From NCBI GenBank assembly GCA_963720265.1, contig CAVRET010000002.1:814069-878068 (forward strand): a stretch of DNA of 64,000 nt. Direction: 5' to 3'. Under the pieces are notes generated by a model. It had not been told where the DNA came from. It saw only the letters and a list, made by a program, of their open reading frames with translations, and ran no database searches. Source of the stretch: an uncultured bacterium (GTDB lineage Bacteria; Patescibacteriota; Saccharimonadia; UBA4664). Of this stretch, positions 33,211-60,062 are shown piece after piece. Positions within the stretch are counted from its first letter, which is position 1; every line of letters begins with the position of its first letter. The position numbers and the translations under genes are program-made.

Positions 33211-33392
33211 GGGTAGTTTTTCCTTTTGTTTTCCTTAAGAGGAATACTACCCGCTGAAATTATTGGAACTCAAGAACTCGGTTCAAACCTAATCATCGCC
33301 GCCCTTGCGGACCCTCATTATGGCTAAACTATGCGCTAGCCCAGGACGTGCCGCAAGGGTGAAAGATATGCAATGGGTTCTACAAAAGTCGC

Positions 33393-33659
33393 TCAATATA
33401 CCTGATTATGCGAGCCAATATCTAGCAGCAAGTAATGATCTTCGGTCTCCTGATATACAACGCGCACATCTCCTCCTACTGAAAAAGCTCGAAGCCCTTG
33501 GAGCTTTCCCGTGAGTGGATGATCATTCAATGGCTCGCGTCTCACTCCATGGCGGAATAGCTCCAGGTGTTGTTTAAAACGATCTATCATTTTTGGCTGG
33601 CGAGCGTAACGCAGCTTGAGATGCTTTTGGAATTGCCGGGAATATTCAATTGGCTTCAT
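33393..33659 (-). CDS. type II toxin RelE/ParE family
   Basis: 88 aa basic protein (KLQGLRAFSVGGDVRVVYQETEDHYLLLDIGSHNQVY), overlapping the upstream antitoxin ORF by 14 nt. Confidence 0.75.
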   Translation of the reverse strand: MKPIEYSRQFQKHLKLRYARQPKMIDRFKQHLELFRHGVRREPLNDHPLTGKLQGLRAFSVGGDVRVVYQETEDHYLLLDIGSHNQVY

Positions 33660-33948
33660 CCGACAGCAGATCTTTCATGAAGTCGTCGACATCGTCGTAG
33701 ATCTTTACCTTGCCTTGACGGCGGAGGTCTTCATGTTCACTAATCTGCTGAGCATATCGGGCTTCGGCTTCAGGGCTGAGTCGCACCGATTCCTCGAGAT
33801 TGACCCTCCTGCCATCGACGTCGGCCTTGGCCAAGAAGCGAATATAGGCCTGGAGTGAGTCAAAGCCATTGCGGTGGGCGAAGTTTTCCCACTCATCGCG
33901 AATATCTTTATCTAGTGGTACTTGTAATTTAACTGTACTCATGCTCAT
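33646..33948 (-). CDS. cognate antitoxin (RelB/DinJ-like)
   Basis: 100-aa acidic protein immediately upstream of and overlapping the RelE-like gene. A promoter-like TTGACA lies at 33975-33980 (minus strand). Confidence 0.55.
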   Translation of the reverse strand: MSMSTVKLQVPLDKDIRDEWENFAHRNGFDSLQAYIRFLAKADVDGRRVNLEESVRLSPEAEARYAQQISEHEDLRRQGKVKIYDDVDDFMKDLLSDEAN

Positions 33949-33968
33949 AGAGTATCAAAGAAGTATAA

Positions 33969-34133
33969 TTATGTCAATGCCGTGCCTAAACTTTGTATAA
34001 AGCAAGCATAAGTGCCTTGGTGGGGCGTGAGGATAAGATGGCTGCCTCTTTGCCTAAGCTCGACGAAGCCACATTTCTTTAAGACTTTAACGACTTGGTC
34101 GGGCGATAGACTTGGTAGTGAGCCGTCGGGCAT
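33969..34133 (-). pseudogene. hicA toxin, 3'-truncated (diverges after SHLIL at the conserved-motif junction)
   Basis: The first 35 aa, MPDGSLPSLSPDQVVKVLKKCGFVELRQRGSHLIL, are about 85% identical to intact hicA at 43324-43560. The C-terminus is replaced by the antisense translation of the recurring motif AGCATAAGTGCCTTGGTGG (34005-34025). Confidence 0.6.
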
Positions 34134-34357
34134 TAAATAGCAACCTGGACACGGCCCTGCCAAATGTGGTCTTGGGGTAGTTCCTTGTGTTCGCTCTTCA
34201 ACGACTCAAGATATAGTTCGATAGCTTCGGTAATATTGATCTCGGCTTCTTCAAGGGTATTACCCTGGCTATAGCAGCCAGGCAGCGCAGGTACAGATGC
34301 CACAAAGCCACCTTCTGGATCGGCCTCATATATAACTGTGTAAACTTGAGTTTTCAT
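34133..34357 (-). CDS. HicB family antitoxin
   Basis: 74 aa, MKTQVYTVIYEADPEGGFVASVPALPGCYSQGNTLEEA. It is 90% identical to 43560-43784. The stop overlaps the hicA start by 1 nt. Confidence 0.8.
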   Translation of the reverse strand: MKTQVYTVIYEADPEGGFVASVPALPGCYSQGNTLEEAEINITEAIELYLESLKSEHKELPQDHIWQGRVQVAI

Positions 34358-34488
34358 AGATATATTTTACCATAGCAATGGTGGCTCGCCCGACTATTTC
34401 TGATTCAATTTTTTGGCTCCTTAAGGGGATAATTCCTGGTGGGGCGTAGTAGGTTCTGTTAGAACTGCGATTATGAATTCTGCGAGAC

Positions 34489-35538
34489 CTATTTGATCGA
34501 TACCCAATCATGAGTTTGGCTGCGGTGTTTTTCGGCCAAACCATGAATAAAAATGTTGAGTTTCAGCCTGGGCGTGAGCTGACCTTCCCTATCGCGATCG
34601 AACTCAATACCCCAGATTCTTGCACTGACATAATCATCGGCAACCTGGAGTTCTTCTCGTAACACCCTTTTAAGTGCATCGTCCAAAGCTTCTCCCTTGC
34701 GGACTTTGTCCATCAAATGGAGGCCGTTTTTTACGTTACGATAGAATTTGCGTTCGTGTTCGTCATCGAAGTCCCAGACATAGGGGTCAATGAAAACTTT
34801 ACGCTTGATATGGAGAGCATCGAATTGTGTATCGTTTACGAGCTTAGTTGATAGGCCATAAGATTGGTAGAAGCTTCTGGGTATAAGTCCAAGGTCGTAT
34901 TTGCGAGCAAAGTCCGCCATGGAGTCAGCGACAAGGTAGGAGAATTCTGGATTTGTCTGCTGGTTGTCTTTATCAACCACAAAGTCGAGCATAGCGTTGT
35001 TGAGGATATGGATCGACCCGTCACGCTTATGTTCTGCATAATAAGGGCTATAAATAACCAGCGCTTCGCGGCCATCACCGATTACTTCAAGACCTTCCGG
35101 GGCGAATCGAGGCGTGAAGTCAGATTGATTAAAGAACTCTGCGAGCGGTCGACTACGTCGAAAGTAACTGTGATCGAATGACAATCCAGGGTCTTGTGGT
35201 AGCCGGGCGCCGCTATGAAGATTTGAGTAGACGGCGAGCGACAACCGATTGGCGGCATAGCGGATTGAGTACATGATGTCGTCATGGCGCGGAATATCGT
35301 CTTCGTTTGATTTAAGATGAAGCATTTTGTCTTCAATCTTGAGTGCAACAAGAGCCCGTTCGTCGTAGATAAGCTGAGCCGTATCACCCTCAGATATTTT
35401 TGAGACAGACCAACGAGCTTCAATGTGACGATCCACCGGAAAGCTATTTAAAACATCGGCGAGCACGGACTTGAACTCCTCTAGCGCAGTTTCGGTGCTA
35501 GTTTCGAGCCAGTTTTGCTTAACCATAAGGTCAATCAT
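34489..35538 (-). CDS. hypothetical protein (349 aa)
   Basis: Long protein-like ORF with 42% GC. No family recognised by eye. Confidence 0.5.
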   Translation of the reverse strand: MIDLMVKQNWLETSTETALEEFKSVLADVLNSFPVDRHIEARWSVSKISEGDTAQLIYDERALVALKIEDKMLHLKSNEDDIPRHDDIMYSIRYAANRLSLAVYSNLHSGARLPQDPGLSFDHSYFRRSRPLAEFFNQSDFTPRFAPEGLEVIGDGREALVIYSPYYAEHKRDGSIHILNNAMLDFVVDKDNQQTNPEFSYLVADSMADFARKYDLGLIPRSFYQSYGLSTKLVNDTQFDALHIKRKVFIDPYVWDFDDEHERKFYRNVKNGLHLMDKVRKGEALDDALKRVLREELQVADDYVSARIWGIEFDRDREGQLTPRLKLNIFIHGLAEKHRSQTHDWVSIK

Positions 35539-35603
35539 AGAGATATTGTAGCAGGCCTTAGTATAATCTTGAGGCTACGAGCAGTAAAATAATCATAAGT
35601 GCC

Positions 35604-35909
35604 TTGGTGGGCAATGAGGCACGGCATCAGAACTTTTTGGGCGCCTCGAATGTTACCGAATTATACAATGCTTTGCAGGATTTTAAACCCAGGACCAAAA
35701 CTGAGACACGGAGGGTGCCGGCATTACAGCTATCCCCTGCTCGGCGTGGCCTCAATGTAGATAACTTGGTTGCCGACTATAATGCTGGCTGGTCTCTGCG
35801 GCAGCTGACAGACAAGCATGGTATTTGCCGGGAGACAGTGACGTTGCAGCTGCGGAAAGCCGGGGTGACAATACGACTGCGAGGTAGCAATATGCACCAT
35901 GAATGGTAA
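35604..35909 (+). CDS. repeated small HTH protein, intact copy B (101 aa)
   Basis: TTG/GTG start embedded in the conserved motif. Product ends GWSLRQLTDKHGICRETVTLQLRKAGVTIRLRG (HTH). Paralogous to 41873-42190 and to decayed copies at 38289-, 39410- and 53011-. Confidence 0.5.
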   Translation: MVGNEARHQNFLGASNVTELYNALQDFKPRTKTETRRVPALQLSPARRGLNVDNLVADYNAGWSLRQLTDKHGICRETVTLQLRKAGVTIRLRGSNMHHEW

Positions 35910-35925
35910 TTATATGTTGGTCGGA

Positions 35926-36408
35926 TTACTTGACGACTTTGGACATTCGAATGAGGTCGATTGATCCCCAAGGTGTCACCTGTCCAGTTTCGTTGAACCC
36001 GTGGTGCTCATAATACTTTTTTAGCCAGGGCGCTAGCGACATGTAGTCTAACTCTAAGAGGTTGACTTTAAGGCGTTTGGCATAGGCTTCAAGCGCGTTT
36101 ATTAGGGCGGTTCCGAGTCCGATTCCGCGGAATTGCTGTACGACCGTAAGCAATCCGAAGTGCAGACTCGACCCGTCCCGCTGCACATAGACGCAACCGA
36201 CAACTTGCATGCCGCGTTTTGCGATGTAGAATTCGCTTTCACTAATTCTTTGGCTTAGATGCTCACGGTCGGTGCGCGGCCCACCCTTGGCGGCGTCTTG
36301 GTATGCATAGGCCGCATTGATCATCGTCACGGTATCATCGATGTCTGCAGTTGTGATACGTCTTAAAGCGATGTCTTTGAACTCAAACAAGTTGGATAAT
36401 GTTGTCAC
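35926..36408 (-). CDS. GNAT family N-acetyltransferase
   Basis: VQQFRGIGLGTALINALEAYAKRLKVNLLELDY is the acetyl-CoA-binding motif A, Q/RxxGxG/A. Confidence 0.8.
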   Translation of the reverse strand: MTTLSNLFEFKDIALRRITTADIDDTVTMINAAYAYQDAAKGGPRTDREHLSQRISESEFYIAKRGMQVVGCVYVQRDGSSLHFGLLTVVQQFRGIGLGTALINALEAYAKRLKVNLLELDYMSLAPWLKKYYEHHGFNETGQVTPWGSIDLIRMSKVVK

Positions 36409-36419
36409 GAGTTCTAGGC

Positions 36420-36680
36420 TTATTTTGTGGACGCTTTATGGATTATTGACGCGGCAAGAGTCTGATAAGGTATTCCCTCTTCTATCGCCTTGGACTTGAG
36501 TCTGTAGAGATCACGCTCGGAGAGACGGATGTTTATATTTTTTGTCTTGTTGAGGGTGTTCCTGGCATAAGATTGCAGGAGCTTCTTACGTTTCTCAAGA
36601 TCTGGCGCGCTCGCGAGTTCACCGTTTTCGAACTCATCAAGAAGTTTTTGCTCTTCGTCTGATAGTTCATAGTAGTTCAT
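36420..36680 (-). CDS. BrnA-type antitoxin
   Basis: 86 aa with C-terminal NINIRLSERDLYRLKSKAIEEGIPYQTLAASIIHKAS, the BrnA/CopG-like pattern. Lies downstream of and overlaps the BrnT-like gene by 4 nt. Confidence 0.6.
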   Translation of the reverse strand: MNYYELSDEEQKLLDEFENGELASAPDLEKRKKLLQSYARNTLNKTKNINIRLSERDLYRLKSKAIEEGIPYQTLAASIIHKASTK

Positions 36681-36958
36681 GATTTATCTCCTTTTAAGTA
36701 TTGCTTGGTGGCTTTTCGTGATGGAATTATAGTTTTTAAGAATATCTTTTCGTTATCTTCGACGTATGGCACTAAGTAAACGTAATTATCTAAATTGACT
36801 ACTAGCTCTCGTTGCCCGGGGTATCTACCTTTATTGGGGTGTTCTAGGTCATCAAGTAACCTGTTGTCATCGATAGCAGCCAACACATCTTCGAACGAGA
36901 CTCCTCGTTCAGTCTTAAGCCGACTATTTTTAAACTCATCCCAGTCGTAGTATTTCAC
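36677..36958 (-). CDS. BrnT (DUF497) family toxin
   Basis: YDWDEFKNSRLKTERGVSFEDVLAAIDD matches the DUF497/BrnT N-terminal signature FEWDxxKxxxNxxKHGVSFEEA. Confidence 0.7.
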   Translation of the reverse strand: MKYYDWDEFKNSRLKTERGVSFEDVLAAIDDNRLLDDLEHPNKGRYPGQRELVVNLDNYVYLVPYVEDNEKIFLKTIIPSRKATKQYLKGDKS

Positions 36959-37046
36959 GATCCTATATTATGACAAAGCATATGGTTTGTAAATGTTCGA
37001 CAGACAAAAAAGAGACCCATGAGGATCTCCTTTTAGCATAAGTTCT

Positions 37047-37343
37047 TTGGTGGAGCTTGTCCGCCGTTACTCGAACCGCTACGACCTGCAGGAACGACTA
37101 TCAGATGCCAGGTCGGAGGCCAATCAACCGGCTGGACGAGAGCACGACGGCGACCAACCCGTCGTCAGCGGTCGAGTTCCAGGCACCTGGCGGGTGAGTG
37201 ACCGGCTGACGGACGCTGACATCCAGGTGCTCATCCGTGAGTTCCTGGCCGGTACGTCCAAGCGGGAACTAGCGGAACGATACGCAATCAGTGTGACCTC
37301 CGCGAAGAACATCCTGAGACAGCATGGCGTGAGACGCGCCTAA
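37047..37343 (+). CDS. small protein with resolvase/Hin-type C-terminal HTH (second motif-associated family)
   Basis: Starts at the TTG GTG inside a motif copy (37035-37053). The C-terminus, LTDADIQVLIREFLAGTSKRELAERYAISVTSAKNILRQHGV, is HTH_7-like. A truncated paralogue lies at 43834-43960. Confidence 0.45.
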   Translation: MVELVRRYSNRYDLQERLSDARSEANQPAGREHDGDQPVVSGRVPGTWRVSDRLTDADIQVLIREFLAGTSKRELAERYAISVTSAKNILRQHGVRRA

Positions 37344-37522
37344 CTCACGCTGGGGCCTTGACCTCGGCGTTTCGTGTCTCGGCCTGGATTCCGGGCCGGG
37401 GCACACCTCACTGGATCTGTGCGGGGCAACGCAACCTGGCCGAGCAAATGCTCCGGCGAGAACTGTCATTGCGGACTCTGAGTGCCTATACTGATGCTAA
37501 TAGATGGATAAAAAGGAACGCG

Positions 37523-38146
37523 ATGGGCATCGACAGTCTACCGAAATGGAAGATTACTACTGCAAGATATGTGGTTGACGACAAGTGGCTAAAAGTGCGC
37601 GCAGATACATGCCTTACTCCAGACGGCAAGACGCTGGACCCTTGGTATGTCATCGAATATCCGGAATGGATAAACTGTGTCGCGGTGGACAACGAATTTA
37701 ACGTGGCTTTGCTACGTCATTACCGGCATGGCGCCGATGAGTATGTGGAAGAGATTGTCGCTGGGACCGTTGAAAAAGATGATACCCCGATGGCCTCTAT
37801 AAGGAGGGAATTAGTTGAAGAAATAGGCTACCAGGGCGGTAATGTCTACCAAACCGGTGTTTCTTTTGCTAATCCGTCAAGCCAGAACAATAGGGTGTAC
37901 TCTTTTCTTGCCGCAGGCGGCACTTTTTCGAAATCGACATACAAAGAGACTGGTGCTGATTTCGTGATTGAAAAGCCTAAGTTTACAGATTTTGTCCAAG
38001 CCGTCACGCGCCTGGATTCAAGCGTCACATATCAGAGTCTGCATCTTACGGCCATATTCTTTGCGCTCAACTACATTAGGTATTCGAATGACCCAGGCCT
38101 TTTGGCGTTACGTAATGAGCTTTTGGCGATAAGCACTGAGCCTTAA
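37523..38146 (+). CDS. NUDIX hydrolase
   Basis: Nudix box GTVEKDDTPMASIRRELVEEIGY. ATG at 37523 with an AAAAGGAA RBS. The longer 37358 start adds an Arg/Trp-rich, non-homologous extension. Confidence 0.7.
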   Translation: MGIDSLPKWKITTARYVVDDKWLKVRADTCLTPDGKTLDPWYVIEYPEWINCVAVDNEFNVALLRHYRHGADEYVEEIVAGTVEKDDTPMASIRRELVEEIGYQGGNVYQTGVSFANPSSQNNRVYSFLAAGGTFSKSTYKETGADFVIEKPKFTDFVQAVTRLDSSVTYQSLHLTAIFFALNYIRYSNDPGLLALRNELLAISTEP

Positions 38147-38288
38147 CCTACTGTAAAAGTCTAGGTACCAAACGGGATTCGAACCGAGCGAATCCCGTGG
38201 CAGAGCCAAAAACTGATGATAAGCTGTCGGATAAAGCGTGGGTTCTTTCGGCCTAATTTTTGGCTTAGAGACGGTTGAACATTCAAAT

Positions 38289-38629
38289 TTGGTGGGCAAT
38301 GAGGGTTGGTATCAGAAGTTTTTGTGTGCCTCGAATGTTAGAGAATTGTACGATGCTCTGCAGGGCTTTAAGCCCCGGGCCACAAGCGAGGCACGGCGGG
38401 TGCCAGCATTGCAGCTCTCTCCCGCCCGGCGTGCACTTGATACCGACAAACTCGTCCGTGATTACAATGACGGTTGGTCACTGCGGCAGCTGGCCCGACA
38501 GAATGGGATCTGCCGAGATACGTGACGCTACAGCTCCGAAAGGCCGGGGTTAAGATTCGACCGCGAGGTAGCAATGTGAGCATAAAACAAGCAAAGAGCC
38601 GCCAGGTGGCAACTCAATGCTCCACCTAA
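38289..38629 (+). pseudogene. repeated small HTH gene, copy D, with a +1 frameshift
   Basis: Colinear with copy B, but GATACGTGACG replaces GACAGTGACG (a 1-nt insertion). This causes a premature TGA at 38525, while the HTH region continues in another frame to 38629. The 5' motif is partly deleted. Confidence 0.55.
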
Positions 38630-38633
38630 CGGC

Positions 38634-39260
38634 TCATGACGTAGGAGTGGGGTTCGAATACCGGATTGTGCGCATATGCCGTAGCACTTTGCGCATGTTG
38701 AGAGCGGGCTTAGCATCTGGATCAACCAGCAGTTCGAATGGGCGGACGGACAAGACGATAATCCGGCCATCTCGAAGCGCGTAGCGATTGCGCCGAAGGC
38801 GATCGATTGCGGCTTGCAGGTTCCAAGCTGAATGCAGAGCGATGCAGCCGTAGAGATTGTAGAAAACTACAGCTGGAATCAGGAACAGCAGACCGCTGGC
38901 AAATCTCAATTCCCATCGATGCTTCTGGACGAAGCTCGCATCTGACTTGCTGGTTGCCATAATGTCACGGTCCCGGTGGGCGGCCATAAAAGCGACGTTC
39001 ATGCTCACCAGAATGCACGCCAGCCATAGCCGGTTGGAGGTGATTAGCATGGGGACGCCCCGCACGCCTGCCTCCTCCATCGCAGGAAAGAGCATGGAGT
39101 AGCCAAGCAGGTGAATCGTTCGCCGGCGATTGTGGCGAATGAGCCATTCAGCTCCATGGCGCTCAAATCCGCGAGCCGTGACAAGCGTCTCGTAGGTCAG
39201 GCAGTACGTGAACCCCACGAAGCCAATCACAATCGCGACATAGATCTGGTGAAGGATCAC
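38634..39260 (-). CDS. CPBP (CAAX protease / Abi) family intramembrane metalloprotease
   Basis: Motifs EEAGVR (EExxxR), FMAAH (FxxxH) and HSAWN (HxxxN), in order, within a polytopic membrane protein. Confidence 0.65.
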   Translation of the reverse strand: MILHQIYVAIVIGFVGFTYCLTYETLVTARGFERHGAEWLIRHNRRRTIHLLGYSMLFPAMEEAGVRGVPMLITSNRLWLACILVSMNVAFMAAHRDRDIMATSKSDASFVQKHRWELRFASGLLFLIPAVVFYNLYGCIALHSAWNLQAAIDRLRRNRYALRDGRIIVLSVRPFELLVDPDAKPALNMRKVLRHMRTIRYSNPTPTS

Positions 39261-39409
39261 GGTGACCTCTTCCGGTATAGGAACTTCCTTACGGTTTGAG
39301 TATATTATAACATCGATTTTATAGAAACGTCAATTTCTATTCTTCATATCTGTACTCGAAAGGACCTTTTCGTCAAAAAGGAGAAAATACTAATTTAAAC
39401 ATAAGGGCC

Positions 39410-39731
39410 TTGGTGGGCAATGAGGCGCGGCATCAGAACTTTTGGATACCGAGACGGTCGCTGAATTATACCATGCACTGCAGAAATTTAAGCACCGGCC
39501 AATAGTGAGACGCGACGGATACCGGCTTTGCGGCTCTCCCCTGCCCGACGTGCATTAGATATTGGCAAACTCGCCGACGACTATAAAGCCGGCTGGTCTT
39601 TGCGACAGTTGGCCGATAAGAACGGTATCCACATGGAGACAGTGACACTACAACTGCGCAAAGTCGGTGTTGAGATTCGACCGCACGGATGTAGCGTACG
39701 GATTAACTCAATTAACTTAGCTCGCCGTTAA
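39410..39731 (+). pseudogene. repeated small HTH gene, copy E, with two 1-nt deletions
   Basis: The motif is intact (ACATAAGGGCCTTGGTGGG). The N-terminal third is disrupted by two single-base deletions relative to copy B. The C-terminal HTH, GWSLRQLADKNGIHMETVTLQLRKVGVEIRPHG, is still readable in ORF 39528-39731. Confidence 0.5.
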
Positions 39732-40343
39732 GAGCCCTATATTGCTCCCGACAAATTGCATCAACGGTTGTCCGATCGCATGTTGCCAAAATTGGGCCTG
39801 CTCTGCGGCGGTCATATCGGCGATACACTTACCGCTCGCCGGATCGATCTGAATTGACTCTATGGGATAGCCTTCAACAATATGCTGACTTCGGATGGCA
39901 GTGAATTGGCGCGGCGAGCGAATAGTTGCTTCCGCTATCCCTCCCTCAGGAGCTGCAATCGTAACGGCAAATTCCCAATGGCCCTTCATAGAACCGCCAT
40001 GACTTTCGACTAATTTGGCATAATAATTAAGCATTTCCCGGTCGCTCGGACGACCGGTACTACCGGGAATTCGACGCACATGCAGACCAGGCTGTTCGTC
40101 GTCTGGCAGACCATCCAGGTAGAGAGCATTGTCCATAGAGAAAACCGGCCTACCAGCTGCCCGGGCGTAGGCTCGGGCCTTGGCGCGAGCGTTCTCTGCG
40201 GCGGTCACTCCGTCTTCCGGTACTTCTAGGTTAATACCTAATTCGTTAATCCCACGCACAAGTACACCTAATGGTTCGAGTGTACCCTGCACTTGGTCGA
40301 TCTTGGCTTTGTTCTCAGTTCCAAATAGTAGCTCAACCGCCAT
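39717..40343 (-). CDS. Ham1/ITPase (non-canonical purine NTP pyrophosphatase)-like protein
   Basis: N-terminal LLFGTENKAKIDQVQ and a central SMDNALYLDGLPDDEQPGLHVRRIPG resemble RdgB/Ham1-family motifs. Assigned by pattern only. Confidence 0.45.
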   Translation of the reverse strand: MAVELLFGTENKAKIDQVQGTLEPLGVLVRGINELGINLEVPEDGVTAAENARAKARAYARAAGRPVFSMDNALYLDGLPDDEQPGLHVRRIPGSTGRPSDREMLNYYAKLVESHGGSMKGHWEFAVTIAAPEGGIAEATIRSPRQFTAIRSQHIVEGYPIESIQIDPASGKCIADMTAAEQAQFWQHAIGQPLMQFVGSNIGLLTAS

Positions 40344-40383
40344 GGGGCCTCCTTATTCCGCCGGACTAGCATATCCTATCAGC

Positions 40384-41118
40384 CTACACCTCAGGCTGAA
40401 ACTTGTTGCGACTCCAGTTCCACAAAACCGGATGGACTTGAGAAGGATTGATACCACTTCCCGTTAAAAGCTTCTCCCAGGCAGCTTCAACTACCAATGG
40501 GCTTGCTCCGGTAGGCACCAGCCCGAGTTGGACGCTGGACTGTATGACGTGAGTATCGGGAATAATTGAGATTTCTTGCGGATTGGTGAACTCGACATCC
40601 GTGTAACGTGATAGGATGAACGGCCAATAGTTTGATAATTTAGGGCCCGACAAATAGGGAAATCGCTTGCGATGAGTAACCTGTAGCAATTGGATCAGCT
40701 GGCCAGCATCATGGTGCGCTTCAGCAATAATGCGTCGGGGATCGTCTTCATAGAAATCATGCAGTGTCTGGGCAATAGTGGTCCAGATCAACGTGTGCTT
40801 GTTGGGCTGGAGGGCTAAGCGATATTTACCGAGGTCATCTCGGACTTGCTTAAGAGGTGCGTCCCCGAGTTTTTCAGGAAAGAAAACGTAGCGGGTGGTC
40901 TCGTCCTCGTAGGTTTTGAGCGCTGACGCCCACATGGCCGGAGAATTTCGTTGAAAGTTGATGCAGACAGGAAGCGTGAAGTAAAGATAGTTTTCGCGAC
41001 TGTTCAAATGTACGTTTGGATGGACTTCGTGCTGAGCAAGTGTTGGGATTAAGTGCTGGTCGTAGGAGGCCATTAGGCGCTTCACTCGACCTAATAGAAT
41101 GACTTGATCTTCTTCCAC
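40384..41118 (-). CDS. HhH-GPD superfamily DNA-glycosylase-like protein
   Basis: Helix-hairpin-helix FPYLSGPKLSNYWPFIL, followed by IPDTHVIQSSVQLGLV (cf. endonuclease III VDTHVFRVSNRLGL). Confidence 0.45.
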   Translation of the reverse strand: MEEDQVILLGRVKRLMASYDQHLIPTLAQHEVHPNVHLNSRENYLYFTLPVCINFQRNSPAMWASALKTYEDETTRYVFFPEKLGDAPLKQVRDDLGKYRLALQPNKHTLIWTTIAQTLHDFYEDDPRRIIAEAHHDAGQLIQLLQVTHRKRFPYLSGPKLSNYWPFILSRYTDVEFTNPQEISIIPDTHVIQSSVQLGLVPTGASPLVVEAAWEKLLTGSGINPSQVHPVLWNWSRNKFQPEV

Positions 41119-41160
41119 CGATTCATCATACCAAAAGGTGTAATCTTGGACCTGGTCGCG

Positions 41161-41523
41161 CTATTTAGTCAAAGGATTATGAAGCCGGAGCCCTTCAATT
41201 TTCTCGAAGTCTTCTGTATTGGCAGTCCAAAGCTCACAGTCCTGCTCTAGAGCTGTTGCCGCGATAATGGCATCCCCCAGACTCATTTTGCCTTGTTGCC
41301 GTAATTTAATAGCGCGTTGAATAGTGGCTTCATCAAGCTCAAGCTGCTCGCATTCGACAAAGAGTGCTTCAAGGTAGCTTTGCTCGGCCACGGTGATCTG
41401 CGCATAGCCCAAAGCTTCGATCTTGGTAATACTTCCGTAGGCAATGTCGGTGTCACCTAAGACGTCTGGGGCGATCCTGCCGTTGGCAAGGTAAATAAAA
41501 GTATTGGTGTCGAGTAGAATCAT
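41161..41523 (-). CDS. VapC (PIN domain) toxin
   Basis: MILLDTNTFIY...D at position 5, and the conserved acidic residues of the PIN fold. 120 aa. Confidence 0.8.
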   Translation of the reverse strand: MILLDTNTFIYLANGRIAPDVLGDTDIAYGSITKIEALGYAQITVAEQSYLEALFVECEQLELDEATIQRAIKLRQQGKMSLGDAIIAATALEQDCELWTANTEDFEKIEGLRLHNPLTK

Positions 41524-41526
41524 GGC

Positions 41527-41790
41527 TTACGGCCGGCCCGGCAGCGAGCGGTCTTGGCGTATATCCTTTTGCCAGCTCACCGGATTGGCAATAGTGTCAT
41601 AAGCGTTCAGTGTTTGCAGCTTTGCAATGAGACGTTTAATCTTCGCGTGATCTTGTTCTTTTTGCTTAACCGGTAAGCTTAGACTAACTTTATCGCCGGG
41701 AGTTAATTTGGCGGCGTCAGCATATTGCTTGGGCACACGGAGCGCGACGGAGTTCCCGGTTTTGATGACGGTAGCAGTGTATATATTCAT
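41527..41790 (-). CDS. AbrB/MazE/SpoVT-family antitoxin (VapB)
   Basis: MNIYTATVIKTGNSVALRVPKQYADAAKLTPGDKVSLSL is a swapped-hairpin beta-barrel motif. Stop lies 4 nt before the vapC start. ATG at 41790. Confidence 0.7.
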   Translation of the reverse strand: MNIYTATVIKTGNSVALRVPKQYADAAKLTPGDKVSLSLPVKQKEQDHAKIKRLIAKLQTLNAYDTIANPVSWQKDIRQDRSLPGRP

Positions 41791-41872
41791 GTATCTATTA
41801 TTGTATATATAATTTTGCGAGTCAACAATTACAACAAAAACGGCAACGAGGCCGTTTTTAAGCATAAGTTCT

Positions 41873-42190
41873 TTGGTGGGCAATGAGGCACGGTATCAGA
41901 ACATCTTGGGTGCCTCGAATGTTACCGAATTATACAATGCCTTGCAGGATTTCAAACTTCGGCCCAAGGGAGAGACGCGTAGGATTCCGGCGTTACAGCT
42001 GTCCCCTGCTCGACGTGCTCTGGATGTCAGCAAGCTGGCTAACGACTACCGGGATGGCTGGTCGCTACGGCAGCTGTCCCAAAAGAACGGTATTTGTAGA
42101 GATACTGTAAGATTGCAATTGCGCAAGGTCGGGGTACGTATTCGAGCTCGAGGCAGCAATGTCCGGATTAAGCAAGTGCCAATAAGGTAG
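41873..42190 (+). CDS. repeated small HTH protein, intact copy F (105 aa)
   Basis: About 75% identical to copy B. Preceded by the motif TAAGCATAAGTTCTTTGGTGGG and the hairpin AAAAACGGC(aacgag)GCCGTTTTT at 41836-41859. Confidence 0.5.
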   Translation: MVGNEARYQNILGASNVTELYNALQDFKLRPKGETRRIPALQLSPARRALDVSKLANDYRDGWSLRQLSQKNGICRDTVRLQLRKVGVRIRARGSNVRIKQVPIR

Positions 42191-42433
42191 CTCGGACAAA
42201 GACGAGGAGCGGGGGCTTTACTACAGCTGCGACTCGGCAAGTGCGACTATGCGATTAGCAATGTTTTCAACTGATTGATTGCCATCTATTGCCTTATCGA
42301 CTAGTCCGCTACGCCTTAATCGTTCGAACGTGTCAAGCTGCCGTTGGAGCCATGGCGTAGCGTCTTGGTAATTCTCGATTCGCATGCGCTGCTCATTGCG
42401 TTGGGCGAGCTGTTCGATAGTAAGTTGTGAACC

Positions 42434-42960
42434 ACCTCGGGCTAAAGCCCGAGGCTTCCTTGGGGCGGCATGCTGGGTTTAGCTTTCCATTGATTTTCGA
42501 TATACCGTTTAATCGCCTGCTCCGTGTTACGACCAACACTCTCGGCGAAGTAGCCATCCGCCCAGAAGCTATCTCCCCATAACCATTCTTCCAGTTCAGG
42601 ATGCGTCTGGCGGATAGCCCGACTTGATCCGCCCTTGAAGATTTGTACTACCTGTGACACCGAGATGCTGGGAGGTAGTTCAATAAGCATATGAATGTGG
42701 TCGGGCATCACTGCCAGCCGCTCAATCCACCAGTCGTTCATCTCTGCGCACTGAAAGAATAATCGCTTCAGGTCAGTGGCGACTTCGCCCCGCAGGATGC
42801 TTTTGCGGTACTTGGGTATCCAGACGATATGAAATTGCAGGCGATATAGCGTATGCGCACCGGAATAATATTTTTTACCTGACTTCACATACCCAGCATG
42901 CCAGACTGTCGGCGCCAGCGCCAAGGTTGGACGTCACCCGGTTTTGCCTTGGCGCTACCG
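42434..42960. mobile_element. IS200/IS605-family element (tnpA only) bounded by subterminal hairpins
   Basis: Hairpin CCTCGGGCT(aaa)GCCCGAGG at 42434-42453 and the GCGCCAAGG...CCTTGGCGC palindrome at about 42915-42960 flank a single Y1 transposase gene. Confidence 0.65.
42442..42924 (-). CDS. IS200/IS605 family Y1 (HUH) transposase TnpA
   Basis: HUH motif PDHIHMLIE and catalytic Tyr context KRYIENQ. YRLQFHIVWIPKYRKSIL is the typical N-terminus. Confidence 0.8.
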   Translation of the reverse strand: MALAPTVWHAGYVKSGKKYYSGAHTLYRLQFHIVWIPKYRKSILRGEVATDLKRLFFQCAEMNDWWIERLAVMPDHIHMLIELPPSISVSQVVQIFKGGSSRAIRQTHPELEEWLWGDSFWADGYFAESVGRNTEQAIKRYIENQWKAKPSMPPQGSLGL

Positions 42961-43323: not shown

Positions 43324-43560
43324 TTATAGAAATTTTAAGAATTCGTCGATCGTTAGTTGCGCTTCCAATTCAATAATCTTTCTAAGCAATGGCTTTTTGA
43401 TGTCTTTGCCCCGGTGCATCGGCACGACCACCCGCTTGCCGGACTGTTCACTGAATAATATCAGGTGGCTGCCTTTTTGCCTGAGCTCAACAAATCCACA
43501 TTTTTTCAGAGCCTTCACGACCTTCTCAGGCGACAGGCTTGGTAATGGGCTTTCCGGCAT
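43324..43560 (-). CDS. HicA family toxin (intact)
   Basis: LPSLSPEKVVKALKKCGFVELRQKGSHLILFSEQSGKRVVVPMHRGKDIKKPLLRKII is full length with a conserved His. Confidence 0.85.
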   Translation of the reverse strand: MPESPLPSLSPEKVVKALKKCGFVELRQKGSHLILFSEQSGKRVVVPMHRGKDIKKPLLRKIIELEAQLTIDEFLKFL

Positions 43561-43784
43561 TAAATTGCAACCTGAACACGACCTTGCCAGATATGATCTT
43601 GTGGCAAATCCTTGTGCTCACTCTTCAGTGACTCAAGGTAGAGTTCGATGGCTTCGGTAATATTGACTTCTGCCTCCTCAAGTGTCTCGCCTTGACTGTA
43701 ACAGCCCGGCAAGGATGGAACAGAAGCGACAAATCCGCCTTCCGGGTCGGCTTCGTATATGACTGTATAAACCTGGGTATTCAT
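43560..43784 (-). CDS. HicB family antitoxin
   Basis: 74 aa, paralogue of 34133-34357. 1-nt overlap with the hicA start. Confidence 0.85.
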   Translation of the reverse strand: MNTQVYTVIYEADPEGGFVASVPSLPGCYSQGETLEEAEVNITEAIELYLESLKSEHKDLPQDHIWQGRVQVAI

Positions 43785-44055
43785 AGATCGATTTTACCAT
43801 AATGTGCAGCTTAGGGCCTTCATATAGCTATTAAGCATAAGTGCTTTGGTGGAGCTCGTCTGCCGTTACTGCAACCGTTACGACCTGCAGGAGCGGCTAA
43901 CGAAAGCCCGATTCAGAACGGCCAACGGCGAGAAGCGGGGCAGGTTAGTTAGGCCTTCAGTGTGAGCTCTAGGGTATCTTCCCCAGTCCGAAAATATGGC
44001 CGGGAAAATAAGCTGTCAGTACTTTAGTTCGAGCACTTACTGTAATCTTTGATTA

Positions 44056-44718
44056 ATGGCATCTTTTTTTGAGCTAATACGAGATGTGAGGCGCGGACGG
44101 CTTGTTGGCTGGACGCTCATAGCAATCGGGATATCGGGACTCTTCGGTACGAGGCTATACGCTCCCGCAACCCATGTACGAGCGCATATCGTTGAAAGCC
44201 AGGTTGTGACAAAGTCAGCGCCGAAACCAACTGTAAAGGAGGTGGCGGCTTATGCAGTGCCTCCATCTGATCCTAAGTTTATAGCGATCCCAGCGATCGA
44301 TTTAGGCAATACGCCGATACTGGCCTTTGGATTATCAGCAACCGGTACGATCGCGACCCCGAATTCGATTTATGAAACTGGTTGGTTTGACGGGAGTAGT
44401 AAACCCGGACAGGCCGGAGTGATGTTTATTTATGGACACATAGCGAGCTTTACGCCGTATAGCGTGTTTGCAAAGTTGCATATGCTCAGGCCGGGCGACG
44501 AGGTGATTATAACCAGGGGGGATAATACGATATTTCGCTACCAGGTTACAGGGTCTGAAACATACCCGTACAATGCGGTCGATATGAGCAGGGTGTTAAC
44601 TCCCGCAAGTGCGGGCATTCCAGCCTTAAACCTTATGACGTGTGCAGGGCAAATTATTACGGTTGGCGGGGTTAAAGAATACAGCCAGCGGCTAGTTATA
44701 TTTACGCAGCAGATTTAG
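44056..44718 (+). CDS. sortase (class E/F-like)
   Basis: N-terminal TM anchor. Catalytic His (MFIYGHIASF) and the Cys motif LNLMTCAG (TLxTC). Confidence 0.75.
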   Translation: MASFFELIRDVRRGRLVGWTLIAIGISGLFGTRLYAPATHVRAHIVESQVVTKSAPKPTVKEVAAYAVPPSDPKFIAIPAIDLGNTPILAFGLSATGTIATPNSIYETGWFDGSSKPGQAGVMFIYGHIASFTPYSVFAKLHMLRPGDEVIITRGDNTIFRYQVTGSETYPYNAVDMSRVLTPASAGIPALNLMTCAGQIITVGGVKEYSQRLVIFTQQI

Positions 44719-45892
44719 GCCGACGTCCGCGCACAATGGCGCATCCCGCAATAAAGCTGATTAGAGACAGGGTGGCAAGTGGAATGTTGGGATGTTGCTT
44801 TGAGACAGCGATTAGGCCAGTATCTGGAGCTTTGGGTGAGTTCGTGCCGGATGAACCAGAATTGCCAGAGCTACTACTAGCTAATACACCGGTAGTCGTC
44901 CATATGTCGCCGCCACTGACAGTCGCCGCCAGGTGGCTGCCGTCACTGGATGAAGCTATGGCGTCCCAGTTAGGTGCGCTTACTGCGGCAGTTTCGGTTT
45001 GGTCCGCCCAGGTCACCCCACCGTCGGTAGATACGTATATGTCGGTATCGATGCCTACAGCCGCTAGATGGCTGCCGTCGCTGGATGAAGCTATGGCCGA
45101 CCAGTTGGGTGAGCCAGCTGCTGTTTGATCTGTCCAGGTCGCGCCTCCATCGATGGAGGTGTAGATGTCGCCGCCACTGACAGTCGCTGCAAGGTGGCTT
45201 CCGTCGCTGGATGAGGCAATGTCCGTCCAGCTGCGCGTCCCGGCTGCAGCTTGGTCCGTCCAGGTAGCCCCGCCGTCGGTGGAGGTATAAATATCGCCAC
45301 CATTGACAGTCGCTGCTAAGTGGCTGCCGTCGCTGGACGAAGCTATGGCCGACCAGTTGCGTGTGCCAGCTGCACTTTGATCTGTCCAAGTCACACCTCC
45401 ATCGGTTGAGGTATAGATGTCGCCTCCACCAACCCCAACGGCAGTCGCTGCCAAGTGGCTGCCGTCGCTGGATGAGGCTATTGCTTGCCAGAAGCGTGAG
45501 CCAGCTGCGGCTTGATCGGTCCAGGTCACGCCTCCGTCGATGGAAGTGTAGATGTCGCCTCCGTGGACCTCAGCCGCTAAGTGGCTGCCGTCGCTGGATG
45601 AGGCTATTTCTTGCCAGCTGCGAGAGCCAGCTGCAGCTTGATCGGTCCAGATCACACCTCCATTGGTGGAGGTGTATATGTCGCCGGCACCGGAAGCATT
45701 GACGGTCGCTGCCAAGTGGCTGCCGTCACTGGATGAGGCTATGTCCGTCCAGTTGCGTGAGCCAGCTGCGGTTTGATCGGTCCAGGTATAGCCGCCGGTT
45801 GCAAGTATATTCGACGTCGATGCAAAGCTAGCAGTTAAGACACAGGCCGACAGAAAGACTCTTCGTATAATCCGATGTGGTACATGTTTCAT
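44702..45892 (-). CDS. secreted BNR/Asp-box repeat protein with C-terminal sortase sorting signal
   Basis: Signal peptide. About eight tandem ~40-aa repeats, each with IYTSTDGGVTWTDQ (SxDxGxTW BNR motif) and IASSSDGSHLAATV. C-terminal KAPDTG, a hydrophobic stretch, then RGRRPK. Confidence 0.65.
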   Translation of the reverse strand: MKHVPHRIIRRVFLSACVLTASFASTSNILATGGYTWTDQTAAGSRNWTDIASSSDGSHLAATVNASGAGDIYTSTNGGVIWTDQAAAGSRSWQEIASSSDGSHLAAEVHGGDIYTSIDGGVTWTDQAAAGSRFWQAIASSSDGSHLAATAVGVGGGDIYTSTDGGVTWTDQSAAGTRNWSAIASSSDGSHLAATVNGGDIYTSTDGGATWTDQAAAGTRSWTDIASSSDGSHLAATVSGGDIYTSIDGGATWTDQTAAGSPNWSAIASSSDGSHLAAVGIDTDIYVSTDGGVTWADQTETAAVSAPNWDAIASSSDGSHLAATVSGGDIWTTTGVLASSSSGNSGSSGTNSPKAPDTGLIAVSKQHPNIPLATLSLISFIAGCAIVRGRRPKSAA

Positions 45893-46331
45893 TTTTGTAC
45901 AAATGGTCTCCCGATAAACACTTATGGTAATTACTATAACTAAGTCCCATGGCCAGGCAAATAGGGACCGGTCCTCGCTGGCGTCTAGATGAAGCGGCTC
46001 GTTTGTCAGGACCGGCTACAGGGCCCGAGCGGCAGCGTTGCGGTCGCGTCGAGTAGAGTTTGGCGTTTTGCCTGATCTGAGGGCTCAAACGTACAGTTTT
46101 GCCAGGGAAACTCTGTGCTTTGATGCCACTGATTACGCAAAGATCCCGCCTGCTTGGGGCGGGATCTTTGGAGATACATCAAATTGGAGCGAACTTTATT
46201 TGCGTAGGGAGACGATTACGAGACCCGCAACCAGCGCGTGGCCAAGAGCTTTGAATCGCGGTTGCACGCGTTTGCGTGCCAGATAGGCATAAGTGCTTTA
46301 TTTGAGACGCCGTTTGTTTTAAGCTTGAGGC

Positions 46332-51960: not shown

Positions 51961-53373
51961 GTGCTTATCTTTATTCAAGATAAGAGCGGATCGTGGATTA
52001 CTGCAGCCTCAGGGCGTTCGTGCTCAGCAACTTGCGTTGTTCGCTTGACAATCTCCGGCCACAAGCTCGGAGACCTGCTCAGGGACCGCTACTACCTGGG
52101 TTACGTCGAGTATGACGGAATCGAGTACGCGGGCAGGCATGAGGCGCTCATCAGCCCAGAGCTGTTTGAGCGCGTCCAGAAGGTGCTGGACTCCCACTCG
52201 GGCACGGGTACGCGGACGCGGACGCATAACCACTACCTCAAGGGCGTGCTCTGGTGCGCTCGGTGTGAGCACCGCTTCATCGTGCAGCGGGCCCGCGGCA
52301 ACGGTGGCGAGTACTTCTACTTCTTCTGCCGGGGACGACAAGAGGGGCTGTGCGATGCACCGTACGTCAACGTCCATGCGGTAGAGCAAGCCGTAATCGA
52401 CCACTACGCCGCGGTCACACTCTCAGACGAGTTCAAGGAGGCTGTACGGGCAAGGCTCGATGGCGCGCTTGCCCATGATCTAGGGAGCACTCAAGCAGTC
52501 CGTGACCGGCTGGAGGCCCGGCTTGCCGCACTCGACACCAAGGAAGACAACCTGCTTGACCTGGCCGCGGACGGCGAGCTACCGAAGGAGAAGATCAGGG
52601 AGAAGCTGCGTACGATCCGAGACGAGCGTGCCAGCATTCGGCGCGATATCGAACGGCTCGACGCTGAGCTTGAGACTGGCCGTGCCGTGTTCGGGCTCGC
52701 GCTCTACCTGCTCGACGAACCGCAGGAGCTGTACCGGCAGGCCGGGCCAGCCCTGCGGAAGGCGATGAACCAAGCGATCTTTACCAGGCTCAAGCTAGAC
52801 GGCCGTGCAGTTACAGCTGATGAACTGGCTGAGCCGTTCGACGTGATCGTGCCTGCTGGTCGGGCCTACGACCGACGCACCTACCAACGTAAAAGACCAC
52901 CCGCACCGTTGAGCGGAGTGGTCTTCCACGAAGGCATCTTGGCCTATGATCTAACCTCGGCTGATCTGCTAGAACTTGGCCTAGGGGGCATTGGTTCTAG
53001 TAAGTCCGCCATGGTGGTCTTAACGATTGCTCTTCAGAACATTTCGGCCACTCAGAGGATCACTGAATTATACGATGCAGTCAAGAATTGTAAATCCCGG
53101 TCCCAGAATAAGACTCGACGAGTGCCGGCGCTTCAGCTCTCCCCTGCCCGCCGAGGACTTGATATTGATCGGCTGGCTACCGACTACCGGGCCGGCTGGA
53201 CGTTGCAACAGCTGGCCGACAAGAACGGCATCCATAAGGATACGGTAACACTGCAACTCAAGAAGGCGGGAGTCAATATTCGGCCAAGAGGAAGCAATAT
53301 GCGCGGAAAGTTAAGTTATTTTATTCCGCCGCGTAACTCCTCGGGCCGTTTTACCAGTACTACCAGTTGTTAG
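51961..53373 (+). pseudogene. large serine recombinase lacking the N-terminal catalytic domain, fused in frame to a copy of the small HTH gene
   Basis: Starts inside the recombinase domain (RDRYYLGYVEYDGIEYAGRHEALISPELF). Zinc ribbon CARCEHRF...YFFCRGRQEGLC and a coiled-coil region follow. From about 53011 (CCATGGTGG, a motif variant) the frame continues into ...RRVPALQLSPARRGLDIDRLATDYRAGWTLQQLADKNGIHKDTVTLQLKKAGVNIRPRG. Confidence 0.5.
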
Positions 53374-57896: not shown

Positions 57897-60062
57897 TTAT
57901 GCTTGATCCGGCAAACCCGATCTCATGGATAGTATGCGTTGTCCATGCTCGGCCAAAAAAGTGTTAGTATCGTCCACCGCGAAGTGGTTGCTCACCAGAT
58001 AATCAATTTGTAGCACCTTTGGAAGCAAGCTTAGATATTTGGTACCGATTAGCAAGTCGCTGAGCTCTTTTTCGTTATCGCCGAACCAATCGCCTAAGGC
58101 CTGTGATGTAATGGGTTCGTTCCGTAACGATGATAAATAGGTAACAAGATTTGGGCACGATATTGACGACTCAAAATCATCAAGTGTGATCTCCTCGCTA
58201 GTATCAGCCTTATTCCTCATCTTGAGAAAGAGACGCAGGGTTCTGTTAATTTTAGAGCCTGCAAACGTCATTAGGGTCTGCTTTTGGCCAGACGGGTTTT
58301 GTATCAAGAAGTCATCGCCGTTCGCTGTTAGGTTCTCCTTGCTCAACTTTGACAAAGCATCCTGTATAACGGGGTCGAAATAGGAGTTTATCTCCTCGAC
58401 TTCTTGGAGGCAGTGCAACATTTCGCGCCGCACTACGTGTGATATATCCCCAGCGCCCCCTCCAAATATTGGCGCTTTGCCGTCAGTCGCCGGCGTGACG
58501 TGCATCTTCTTGCTATAGGTATCAATATCTGTGATTGTCCAAACGCGAGCCGCTAAGTATACGTTCGCCCCTATGGTTGTCGCCATCGTAAGGGGCATTT
58601 CACCAATATGTTCATGGTTATTAATAACTTGGAATTCCATCTTTGCCTCAAAGTGCGCATAAAAGTCTCTTGATTCAATCGATTTTTCAGCCGCTAGTCC
58701 GGTGACATACGAGCCATCAACATCTTCAATGAAATCAATTTCCATCAAATGATCGATGACTTGCTTGATTTGGTCTCCACTTATGTCTCCCCAACAATCC
58801 AACGCATTTAGCTGCACTAATAAGTCTTGGCGAGATAGGCCGCTGTACTGTAATAGAAGAGATAGCGCTTGCTGGACGAGCACGTTATATGGCTTCTTTA
58901 TGGGCACAACCTGCTCTATAGTGCCGCGCTTGTGAAGTTCCAGGGTCGCAATGCTCTGCAATAACGACCATTCTTTGGAAGCGTACAGATGAAGGATGCT
59001 GTGATGCTTCTGTCGGCCACTTCGTCCCAGTCTCTGGGTTAACGACGCTACGGAAGGTGCGCCTTCAACTTGGGCAATGCTGTCAACTGCCCCAATATCA
59101 ATTCCTAGCTCTAAGGTCGAAGTGCAGCAGATTGTGAACAGCTGTTGTTTGGATGTTTTTGCGAACTCCTCCGCTTCCAAACGTAAATCCTTGTCTACAG
59201 ATGCGTGGTGAGCAAAGTATCTAACGTTGTTTTTCGTCCGTTTTGCCCGACGTTTCAGGCCCACCGCTATTTCTTCCACTCGACCCCGAGCGTTTGGGAA
59301 CACTAGCATGCTTTCCCTGCACGAGTAGTCGAAGATGTCATCGATAATGCCAGACGAGGTGGTGGGCCCGTCAGATTGCTCATACAGGATAGTTGTTGTT
59401 AGTTCGTTTCTGCTACTGTCGAGGAGAACACTGGCATCACGCTCGGCACCAAAAAAGTGCTTTGCGATAACATAAGAATCACGATTGAGCGTGGCGGTCA
59501 TACCAATGTAGCGCGGAGACCGTTTAGCAAGTTTACGAATTCGCCCAAGTAAAGACTTAACATGAACGCCTCTAGACGTATCCAAGAAGCTATGCAGTTC
59601 GTCAACAATGACCCACTCGGTATCGCCAAACAGAGACTGTGCCTCGCCGGGGCGACGAGTAAGCATTGCCTCAAGCGACTCAGGGGTTATTAGCAGTATC
59701 CCCTTGGGGTCTTTGAGTAAGCTCTGTTTCCGTGATCTAGACGACTCACCGTGCCAGCTTGTTACCGGGATATCTAAGTAAGCACATAATTCCGTTATCC
59801 TATCAAATTGGTCATTTATGAGCGCGATCAACGGTGATACGTAGACTATTTTTACGCCACGCGACCAGTCCTCGACCGCATTGATGGCAGGAATAAATGC
59901 AGCTTCTGTTTTTCCTGATGCAGTTGGTGCAGCTAATATTAAGTTGTTACTGCCGTCATGCGCGTGTTGGATGGCCGATTCTTGAATCTTCCGGAGCTCC
60001 GGCCACCCCTGGTCGTAGATGTACTTAACAATGTCTCGTTTGAGGAGATCTAAAACACCCAA
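57897..60062 (-). CDS. Lhr-like DEAD/DEAH-box SF2 helicase (SngC-like)
   Basis: Motif I AAPTASGKTEAA, motif II VIVDELHSF, SAT-like MTATL, motif VI QRLGRSGRQ. A long C-terminal extension of about 330 aa follows the helicase core. Confidence 0.75.
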   Translation of the reverse strand: MGVLDLLKRDIVKYIYDQGWPELRKIQESAIQHAHDGSNNLILAAPTASGKTEAAFIPAINAVEDWSRGVKIVYVSPLIALINDQFDRITELCAYLDIPVTSWHGESSRSRKQSLLKDPKGILLITPESLEAMLTRRPGEAQSLFGDTEWVIVDELHSFLDTSRGVHVKSLLGRIRKLAKRSPRYIGMTATLNRDSYVIAKHFFGAERDASVLLDSSRNELTTTILYEQSDGPTTSSGIIDDIFDYSCRESMLVFPNARGRVEEIAVGLKRRAKRTKNNVRYFAHHASVDKDLRLEAEEFAKTSKQQLFTICCTSTLELGIDIGAVDSIAQVEGAPSVASLTQRLGRSGRQKHHSILHLYASKEWSLLQSIATLELHKRGTIEQVVPIKKPYNVLVQQALSLLLQYSGLSRQDLLVQLNALDCWGDISGDQIKQVIDHLMEIDFIEDVDGSYVTGLAAEKSIESRDFYAHFEAKMEFQVINNHEHIGEMPLTMATTIGANVYLAARVWTITDIDTYSKKMHVTPATDGKAPIFGGGAGDISHVVRREMLHCLQEVEEINSYFDPVIQDALSKLSKENLTANGDDFLIQNPSGQKQTLMTFAGSKINRTLRLFLKMRNKADTSEEITLDDFESSISCPNLVTYLSSLRNEPITSQALGDWFGDNEKELSDLLIGTKYLSLLPKVLQIDYLVSNHFAVDDTNTFLAEHGQRILSMRSGLPDQA

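Follow-up and report, generated by a model that had tools for sequence, protein, structure and literature searches.

Background

Genomic islands inserted at tDNA and tmRNA genes are bounded by direct repeats of the 3' end of the gene, can lie in tandem, and in some cases carry no integration genes (PMC3146451; bioRxiv 10.1101/2020.11.02.365908); in the Klebsiella survey no island with an integrase was smaller than 3.5 kb (bioRxiv 10.1101/2020.11.02.365908). Integron arrays and Xer-dependent pdif modules are alike in outline to the locus described below, being short, site-bounded, TA-rich modules of 1-3 kb that are reshuffled between genomes. Integrons are recognized by an IntI gene, an attI site and attC imperfect palindromes (RYYYAAC...GTTRRRY), and pdif modules by a 28-bp dif-like site, the orientation of which alternates around the modules. 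For integration into tDNA and tmRNA genes, sublocation classes were reportedly distinguished by Williams in 2002.

In the window (the whole 64-kb stretch of DNA analysed here), eight direct copies of a 30-nt core and one copy of its flank only split the region 34.0-46.3 kb into cassettes. Like the ssrA islands of Dehalococcoides (PMC3146451) and the tDNA islands of Klebsiella (bioRxiv 10.1101/2020.11.02.365908), this array has direct repeats of a small-RNA 3' end at its boundaries, belongs to a tandem arrangement downstream of the gene with a content that varies between related genomes, has a lower GC content than its surroundings, and includes units without integration genes. Unlike in those islands, the units are only 0.4-2.5 kb long and none has an integrase, the block of identity reaches 15 nt past the tRNA, the window lacks an intact tRNA, and each unit has a helix-turn-helix (HTH) gene that starts inside the repeat. 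With cis-mobilizable elements (CIMEs) and accreted integrative elements (reviewed in PMC5704250) it shares att-flanked segments devoid of recombination and transfer genes, in tandem with related elements, but no parent ICE or IME with an integrase is seen next to the array, and mobilisation in trans is here only putative. Unlike integrons, it has neither IntI nor attC-type imperfect palindromes and its cassettes have their own promoters, and by IntI, attI and attC it does not classify as an integron. Unlike in pdif modules, all sites are direct and the site comes from a tRNA end, not from dif; the core bears a weak resemblance to a dif consensus, which may not be that of the host. The array is best described as a compact, integrase-less variant of tandem tRNA-linked islands.

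Results and discussion

The truncated hicA and its junction

Two hicBA loci are present in the window. They share with the HicAB type II toxin-antitoxin systems (PF07927/PF15919) the order hicB-hicA, with overlapping stop and start codons, the GSH motif region kept in HicA, and a HicB of the short UPF0150 type. The genes that matter for the junction are:

33393..33977, minus strand: operon of a relB-like gene (33646-33948) and a YafQ/RelE-like gene (33393-33659) with its promoter, the cassette distal to core C7
34033..34133, minus strand: retained 5' part of hicA copy 1 (codons 1 to about 34/35), delimited by alignment, Pfam and the repeat boundary
34133..34357, minus strand: hicB copy 1, an intact antitoxin gene (74 aa), now orphan, with a leaderless-type promoter TGGTAAAAT-6 nt-ATG
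43324..43784, minus strand: intact hicBA copy 2, used as reference (hicB 43560-43784, hicA 43324-43560)

The DNA homology of the two loci (77%) begins upstream of hicB and ends exactly at 34033. An earlier note, made from the letters of the sequence, had claimed that the first 35 residues of copy 1 match the intact HicA (78 aa), and indeed 28/35 are identical and the Pfam coverage is reduced: copy 1 aligns to positions 2-32 only of the HicA_toxin profile (58 positions; 31.6 bits), and copy 2 to positions 2-54 (65 bits). The ORF of copy 1 (33969-34133, minus strand) encodes 54 aa with a non-homologous tail of 19 codons, which had been read, correctly, as antisense to a 21-nt motif (34005-34025) and as running into the relBE promoter (TTGACA-17-TACTCT with a leaderless ATG; the -35 TTGACA corresponds to 33972-33977 of the plus strand). 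All HicA homologues that we found (n=9) are 77-78 aa long. Because copy 1 lacks profile positions 33-58, and hence a full-length match to the HicA domain PF07927 (~58 positions), it is a truncated HicA member, i.e. a toxin pseudogene, beside an orphan antitoxin. hicB is under strong purifying selection (pN 0.03 vs pS 0.67-0.90), while branch counts gave no informative answer about relaxed selection on the hicA fragment, with its 35 codons only.

Alignment of the two hicA copies combined with a repeat search maps the breakpoint to 34032|34033, where hicA homology ends (34033) and the tRNA-derived block of core copy C7 begins (34032). The retained hicA sequence directly adjoins the inner edge of the 30-nt core, the one derived from the tRNA, and the core itself is complete; on the hicA side of the junction no core-like sequence was found that replaces part of the core. 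The proposal that the divergence coincides with the motif boundary holds for the edge of the 30-nt core but not for the 21-mer, whose end lies 7 nt away, and the join is not placed at the positions that begin the HTH genes, as had also been proposed, but downstream of the HTH start codon (TTG at 34017), at a distance of 16 nt. An independent Logan assembly of the same sample (run ERR11523669) has the junction, 100% identical, in contig L001, which spans 33353-42456 and is unbroken at every core; the observation is therefore real and no assembler artefact.

Anatomy of the array

The 21-mer occurs in the window in six copies with up to 3 mismatches, all on the plus strand, against 0 expected. 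The 30-nt core that contains it was defined by right-anchored comparison and fuzzy searches. Its copies and the HTH genes attached to them are:

34003-34032, minus strand: core C7, which abuts the truncated hicA; within it lie the 21-mer and the opening 16 nt of an HTH gene (start codon TTG at 34017)
34018-34032 and 34003-34017, minus strand: the parts of C7, i.e. the tRNA-derived 15 nt CCTCACGCCCCACCA (12/15) and the 3' flank AGGCACTTATGCTTG
about 34422-34453, plus strand: degenerate core C6, with TGGTGGGGCGTAGTAGG at 34437-34453 and the variant flank GGGGATAATTCC
34422..34488, plus strand: C6 with a 5' remnant of an HTH gene (about 53 nt) ending at the orf349 stop codon, orthologous to positions 900-945 of related contig L015
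35590..35909, plus strand: core C5 (35590-35619) and intact HTH gene 35604-35909 (101 aa)
37033..37343, plus strand: type B core C4 (37033-37062, GCTCCACCA variant) and HTH-B gene 37047-37343 (98 aa)
38289..38586, plus strand: core C3 (tRNA part 38290-38304, 15/15; the flank differs) and an HTH pseudogene disrupted by frameshift
39396..39731, plus strand: core C2 (39396-39425), with an HTH pseudogene that carries 2 or more frameshifts
41859..42190, plus strand: core C1 (41859-41888, 29/30 to the tRNA-Val end plus flank of related contig L016) and intact HTH gene 41873-42190 (105 aa)
43832..43965, plus strand: type B core C0 (43832-43861) and a truncated HTH-B remnant (39 codons)
46284-46298, minus strand: flank-only copy AAGCACTTATGCCTA (14/15; about 0.006 expected by chance), without the tRNA part

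In the normal layout of a cassette, the cargo is followed at the distal end by a convergent HTH gene of about 100 aa that starts inside the repeat. The cargo genes, which have their own leaderless promoters, include hicBA, relBE, brnTA, vapBC and genes for GNAT, NUDIX, Ham1 and Rce1-like proteins. The variant GCCCCACCA is common to C6 and C7, a terminator-like hairpin lies at 41835-41860 by C1, and C0 sits directly upstream of the second hicB, in the place where contig L016 has its tRNA-Val gene. The flank-only copy at 46284-46298 may be a ninth, half-deleted core or a former position of tRNA-Val; if it is either of these, a BNR-repeat protein (44702-45892) and a sortase (44056-44718) fall inside the array.

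A -10 hexamer separated by exactly 6 nt from an ATG or GTG was observed at the first genes of cassettes (relB-like, both hicB genes, orf349, vapB and orf244), with promoter sites at 33942-33977, 34357-34380, 35538-35560, 41790-41825 and 43784-43805, and internal genes (brnA, Ham1) have Shine-Dalgarno sequences instead. This pattern suggests that leaderless mRNAs are the rule for first cassette genes.

The core is the 3' end of a tRNA-Val gene

In tRNA sense the core reads CCTCATTGCCCACCA|AAGCACTTATGCTTA: it consists of the last 15 nt of tRNA-Val(UAC) and 15 nt of its native 3' flank, and the motif in the window is the reverse complement. This link came only via related contigs, which were reached through the contexts of HicA homologues. 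L016 has a genuine tRNA-Val(TAC) gene at 5059-5135 (ARAGORN; Rfam 71.7 bits), which ends with ...CCCTCATTGCCCACCA (also written ...GGTTCGAGTCCCTCATTGCCCACCA) and is followed by AAGAACTTATGCTTA, a terminator-like hairpin and hicBA. Real tRNA-Val genes were also predicted by ARAGORN in contigs L013 and L014. Compared with the tRNA-Val(TAC) end of L016 and L013, the tRNA part is identical at 15/15 positions in four copies of the window and at 12/15 in the 34005 copy, so the repeats at the boundaries match a tRNA gene 3' end, as they do in tRNA-targeted islands. An intact target tRNA at the proximal end of the array is present in L016, L013 and L014 and absent in the window: ARAGORN found no tRNA gene in the 64 kb, and a Rfam E-value scan none in 33-45 kb.

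Terminator-like hairpins come after the cores in tRNA sense, as if each element restored the 3' context of the tRNA. Read by eye, the core has only a weak dyad, CAT..TGCC-TTGGTG-GGCA-ATG.

Cassettes are exchanged at the core

Only a few short metagenome contigs served for comparison. L016 and the array of the window are syntenic over the segment HTH-core-vapBC-orf244, with 88-90% identity. L016 and L006 share homology across the end of vapC, a 57-nt arm and the core; beyond this point they diverge, with orf292 in one and def in the other; the window is without this 72-nt arm plus core. In L013 and L014 the tRNA-Val gene is followed by foreign sequence with an HD_3 gene and then by a core copy with the canonical flank, which in L013 amounts to an attL/attR-like pair. 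Among L016, L006, L013, L015 and the window, segments are thus present, absent or replaced exactly at the repeats. Since different cassettes adjoin one side of the same repeat and an islet is bracketed by tRNA-Val and the repeat, the comparisons support the view that the repeat behaves as an att-type recombination core. The earlier note had taken the motif for a recombination site on the strength of the hicA scar; this part of its claim is supported for a better reason than was proposed, as the motif would belong to a tRNA-Val att core with direct repeats and cassette swaps, and the scar as a proof of site activity does not stand.

Two contigs bear on the ancestral state of the truncated copy. 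In L015 the orthologous cassette comprises a core, hicB, an intact 78-aa hicA, the decayed remains of an HTH gene (about 90 nt), and a further core, and the cores on both sides carry the GCCCCACCA variant, as do C6 and C7 in the window. In L005 a core-HTH unit is followed by convergent HIT, hicA and hicB. This L005 segment is bracketed by insertion sequence (IS) ends (DDE_Tnp_1; 92-120 and 1465-1495) and looks like a composite transposon.

Core copies without an HTH gene but with another conserved arm were found in L006, L013 and L016. This arm of about 57 nt, CATCAGTRCTAAACTAGCCTCCRCGGTGTTYCACYTARCGTCGCTATA, lies before the HTH-less cores (L006 2522-2575, L013 9150-9206, L016 7460-7521); it is present in L016 and absent at the orthologous spot of the window (41138-41140). 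It is possibly a second type of element end, or else a small RNA.

Searches in wider collections added nothing to this set. HTH alignments retrieved no further loci from genome, metagenome or viral contig collections; the core-pattern matches in viral contigs are due to chance and lie in terminase-like coding sequence; and the single match of the pattern in metagenomes, L021, is an unrelated repeat-rich contig. The hicBA homologue P0015 has a housekeeping gene context, and when its loci (L022-L024) were included in a search for the 30-nt core, none was found there.

HTH genes that start inside the core

The HTH genes are intact at 35604-35909, 37047-37343 and 41873-42190 (only 3/8) and frameshifted at about 38289 and 39410. 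Their products of about 100 aa end in a three-helix HTH, for which the match to Pfam HTH_58 is weak and below cutoff. The AlphaFold model has a pLDDT of 66 overall and of about 85 over residues 52-85, and Foldseek returned only generic HTH folds for it; PHROGs and NCBIfam provided nothing useful about function. The full-length family is rare, with 8 matches in a word-indexed search of 5.8 billion proteins, and a profile search again found the full-length architecture scarce. On its own the C-terminal HTH domain is common: hundreds of larger proteins contain it, repeated 4-15 times in tandem (8198 matches at E<=1e-3; proteins P0018-P0165).

The start codon and the first five codons of these genes (TTG GTG GGC AAT GAG G) are the antisense of the acceptor and T-stem end of the tRNA. 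As homologues from other metagenomes have ATG at the position of the TTG of the window, translation should start inside the motif. The two HTH types are very divergent (29% aa identity), yet the core is common to both. Upstream of the start, at a distance of 4-8 nt, there is a -10-like CATAAG/GATAAT box, and the CATAAG box of the motif could act as the -10 element for the HTH genes. The conserved N-terminus M V G N E A R Y Q N F (35604-35640, 41873-41910 and homologues) is encoded antisense to the tRNA 3' end and the T-loop-like GTTCTGAT. It appears that a tRNA-like att arm has been overprinted with the start of the HTH gene.

Recombinase genes and surroundings

No integrase was found among the ORFs of the array by Pfam and NCBIfam scans, and the only recombinase gene in or beside it is a remnant 8 kb away at 51961-53373 (plus strand). 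This gene of a large serine recombinase is truncated at the 5' end and lacks the catalytic resolvase domain; it retains a Zn_ribbon_recom domain and a partial Recombinase domain, with weak similarity to CcrC/XisF. Given that Dehalococcoides tmRNA islands use a CcrB-like integrase, it may be what decay has left of the recombinase of this region.

An IS200-type Y1 transposase gene (42442-42924) has a strong hairpin at its 3' side (42424-42458), which yields a sub-threshold Rfam match to CRISPR-DR29 (29.2 bits vs a gathering score of 39) and is probably an IS end hairpin rather than a CRISPR repeat. The BNR/Asp-box protein gene contains, at 44891-45797, 7 tandem repeats of 126/135 nt with 65-81% identity to the reference repeat. 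The GC content drops at about 22 kb, from 0.58-0.60 (1-22000) to 0.47-0.52 (22000-50000), and nearby (7882-10500; 57897-63592) there are genes for a TraD/VirB4-like ATPase, for BrxD, for an Lhr-like helicase and for a TerB-C protein, which together suggest that the array is situated within a larger mobile or defence-rich region. The Lhr-like helicase had matches of only 39-44%, in unrelated MAGs; the contig from which the window was taken measures 1,108,292 bp.

Origin of the array and of the hicA scar

Beyond the anatomy of the array, the tRNA identity of its core and the exchange of cassettes at cores from genome to genome, which the comparisons establish, we propose the following history. 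Small integrative cassettes would have accreted in tandem at the tRNA-Val att site, by means of a recombinase that acts, or acted, in trans. The array would now be decaying, with 3/8 HTH genes intact, no integrase and no tRNA. One deletion would have removed hicA codons 36-78 together with the whole HTH arm and ended at an intact core, leaving hicB orphan; its size would range from about 0.2 kb (about 225 nt, from an L015-like ancestor) to about 0.95 kb (about 950 nt, from an L005-like one). We infer an ordinary illegitimate deletion, whose end point would fall at the core edge because the core is conserved, as a functional site or by protection, while the adjacent dead DNA is whittled away. 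To this reading, in which a 30-bp repeat includes the 21-nt motif and a deletion that ended flush against one copy of the repeat turned hicA copy 1 into a pseudogene, we assign a probability of roughly 0.65. The scar in hicA is most likely the outcome of ordinary deletional decay beside the site and no proof of site activity: it adjoins a recombination site, and by itself is no evidence that the site made the cut.

The strongest competitor, which we nevertheless consider unlikely, is that the recombinase of the site made the junction, either by an aberrant exchange with a secondary site in hicA or by a one-sided deletion from the core. The deletion ends within about 2 nt of the inner edge of the tRNA-identity block, flush with the core, and for an end point anywhere in 100-950 nt the random chance of this is roughly 0.5-5%; such a coincidence hints at a site-linked process and speaks against a plain deletion. 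C7 is moreover a hybrid, with the hicBA-cassette variant GCCCCACCA in its tRNA half and a canonical flank half, as expected of an att junction, the native hicA of L015 has AACCAA (codons 38-39) in register with the CACCAA of the core, and cassettes are exchanged at cores in related genomes. Against this, the 15-nt block to the left of CCACCA is core-like, as ACGCCCCACCA agrees with C6 at 11/11 positions and with native hicA at only 9/18. In canonical site-specific exchange the crossover occurs inside the core and a partner site is needed. Since everything left of CCACCA is still core-like, the crossover here would lie outside the core, where tyrosine and serine recombinases do not exchange strands, and a canonical exchange at the junction is unlikely. 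Besides, no recombinase gene is present, and the other HTH remnants end elsewhere, at about 53 nt (C6) and about 120 nt (C0) as compared with 16 nt at the junction; with end points so varied, there is no fixed breakpoint. We also considered a microhomology or pseudo-att crossover through the in-register ACCAA, possibly with AT/GAGG, and rejected it on the ground that the whole 15-nt block is core-derived.

A bolder version, to which we give equally low credence, is that of a still-active, integron-like system of mini-cassettes (0.4-2.5 kb) with the tRNA-Val att core and a recombinase encoded elsewhere. The start of the HTH gene in the core would then allow recombination to rewire HTH expression, and the flush hicA-core junction would stem from a recombinase-linked deletion or from protection of the core. 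An active site could give rise to a circle junction hicA'(34033)|core|GGAATTATCC(34436).

Very improbable, and largely refuted already, is a reading without any role in recombination, in which the motif represents no more than the conserved promoter and gene start of a family of HTH paralogues and was spared by chance when a random deletion truncated hicA. It draws on the start codon within the motif, which is ATG in homologues, on the -10-like box upstream of it, on the use of a -10 box, 6 nt and ATG by the neighbouring cassette genes, and on the upstream half of the motif, which is not conserved in some homologues (L003, L004, L010). It conflicts with the identity of the motif to the tRNA-Val 3' end and flank in L016, where there is no HTH gene, with the HTH-less cores that have another arm in L006, L013 and L016, with the swapping of cassettes at the core, and with its use by two HTH types of 29% aa identity. 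A leaderless promoter plus HTH start as the whole explanation of the motif was dropped on the tRNA-Val identity and is kept as a secondary property.

Least credible of all is a hicA split by insertion of a relBE-bearing cassette at a pseudo-site, or an assembly chimera: cassettes do insert at cores, and the region is repeat-rich, with contigs that break at IS copies, but tblastn located no second hicA C-terminal fragment elsewhere in the 64-kb window, which favours a deletion over a split, and the junction is identical in the unbroken Logan contig.

Conclusions

What the truncation has left of hicA is a toxin pseudogene of the ordinary kind, beside an antitoxin gene that was kept and is now orphan; its main value is to show that the array decays and how strictly the core is preserved. 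The 21-nt motif itself becomes a testable object, namely an attachment core derived from tRNA-Val, by which 12 kb of variable sequence in a genome of ~1.1 Mb are divided into toxin-antitoxin and housekeeping-like mini-cassettes. If a recombinase acting in trans still moves these cassettes, the array would serve a bacterium with a small genome as a very compact platform for shuffling genes, one that would work in outline like integrons and pdif modules, but be built on the end of a tRNA.
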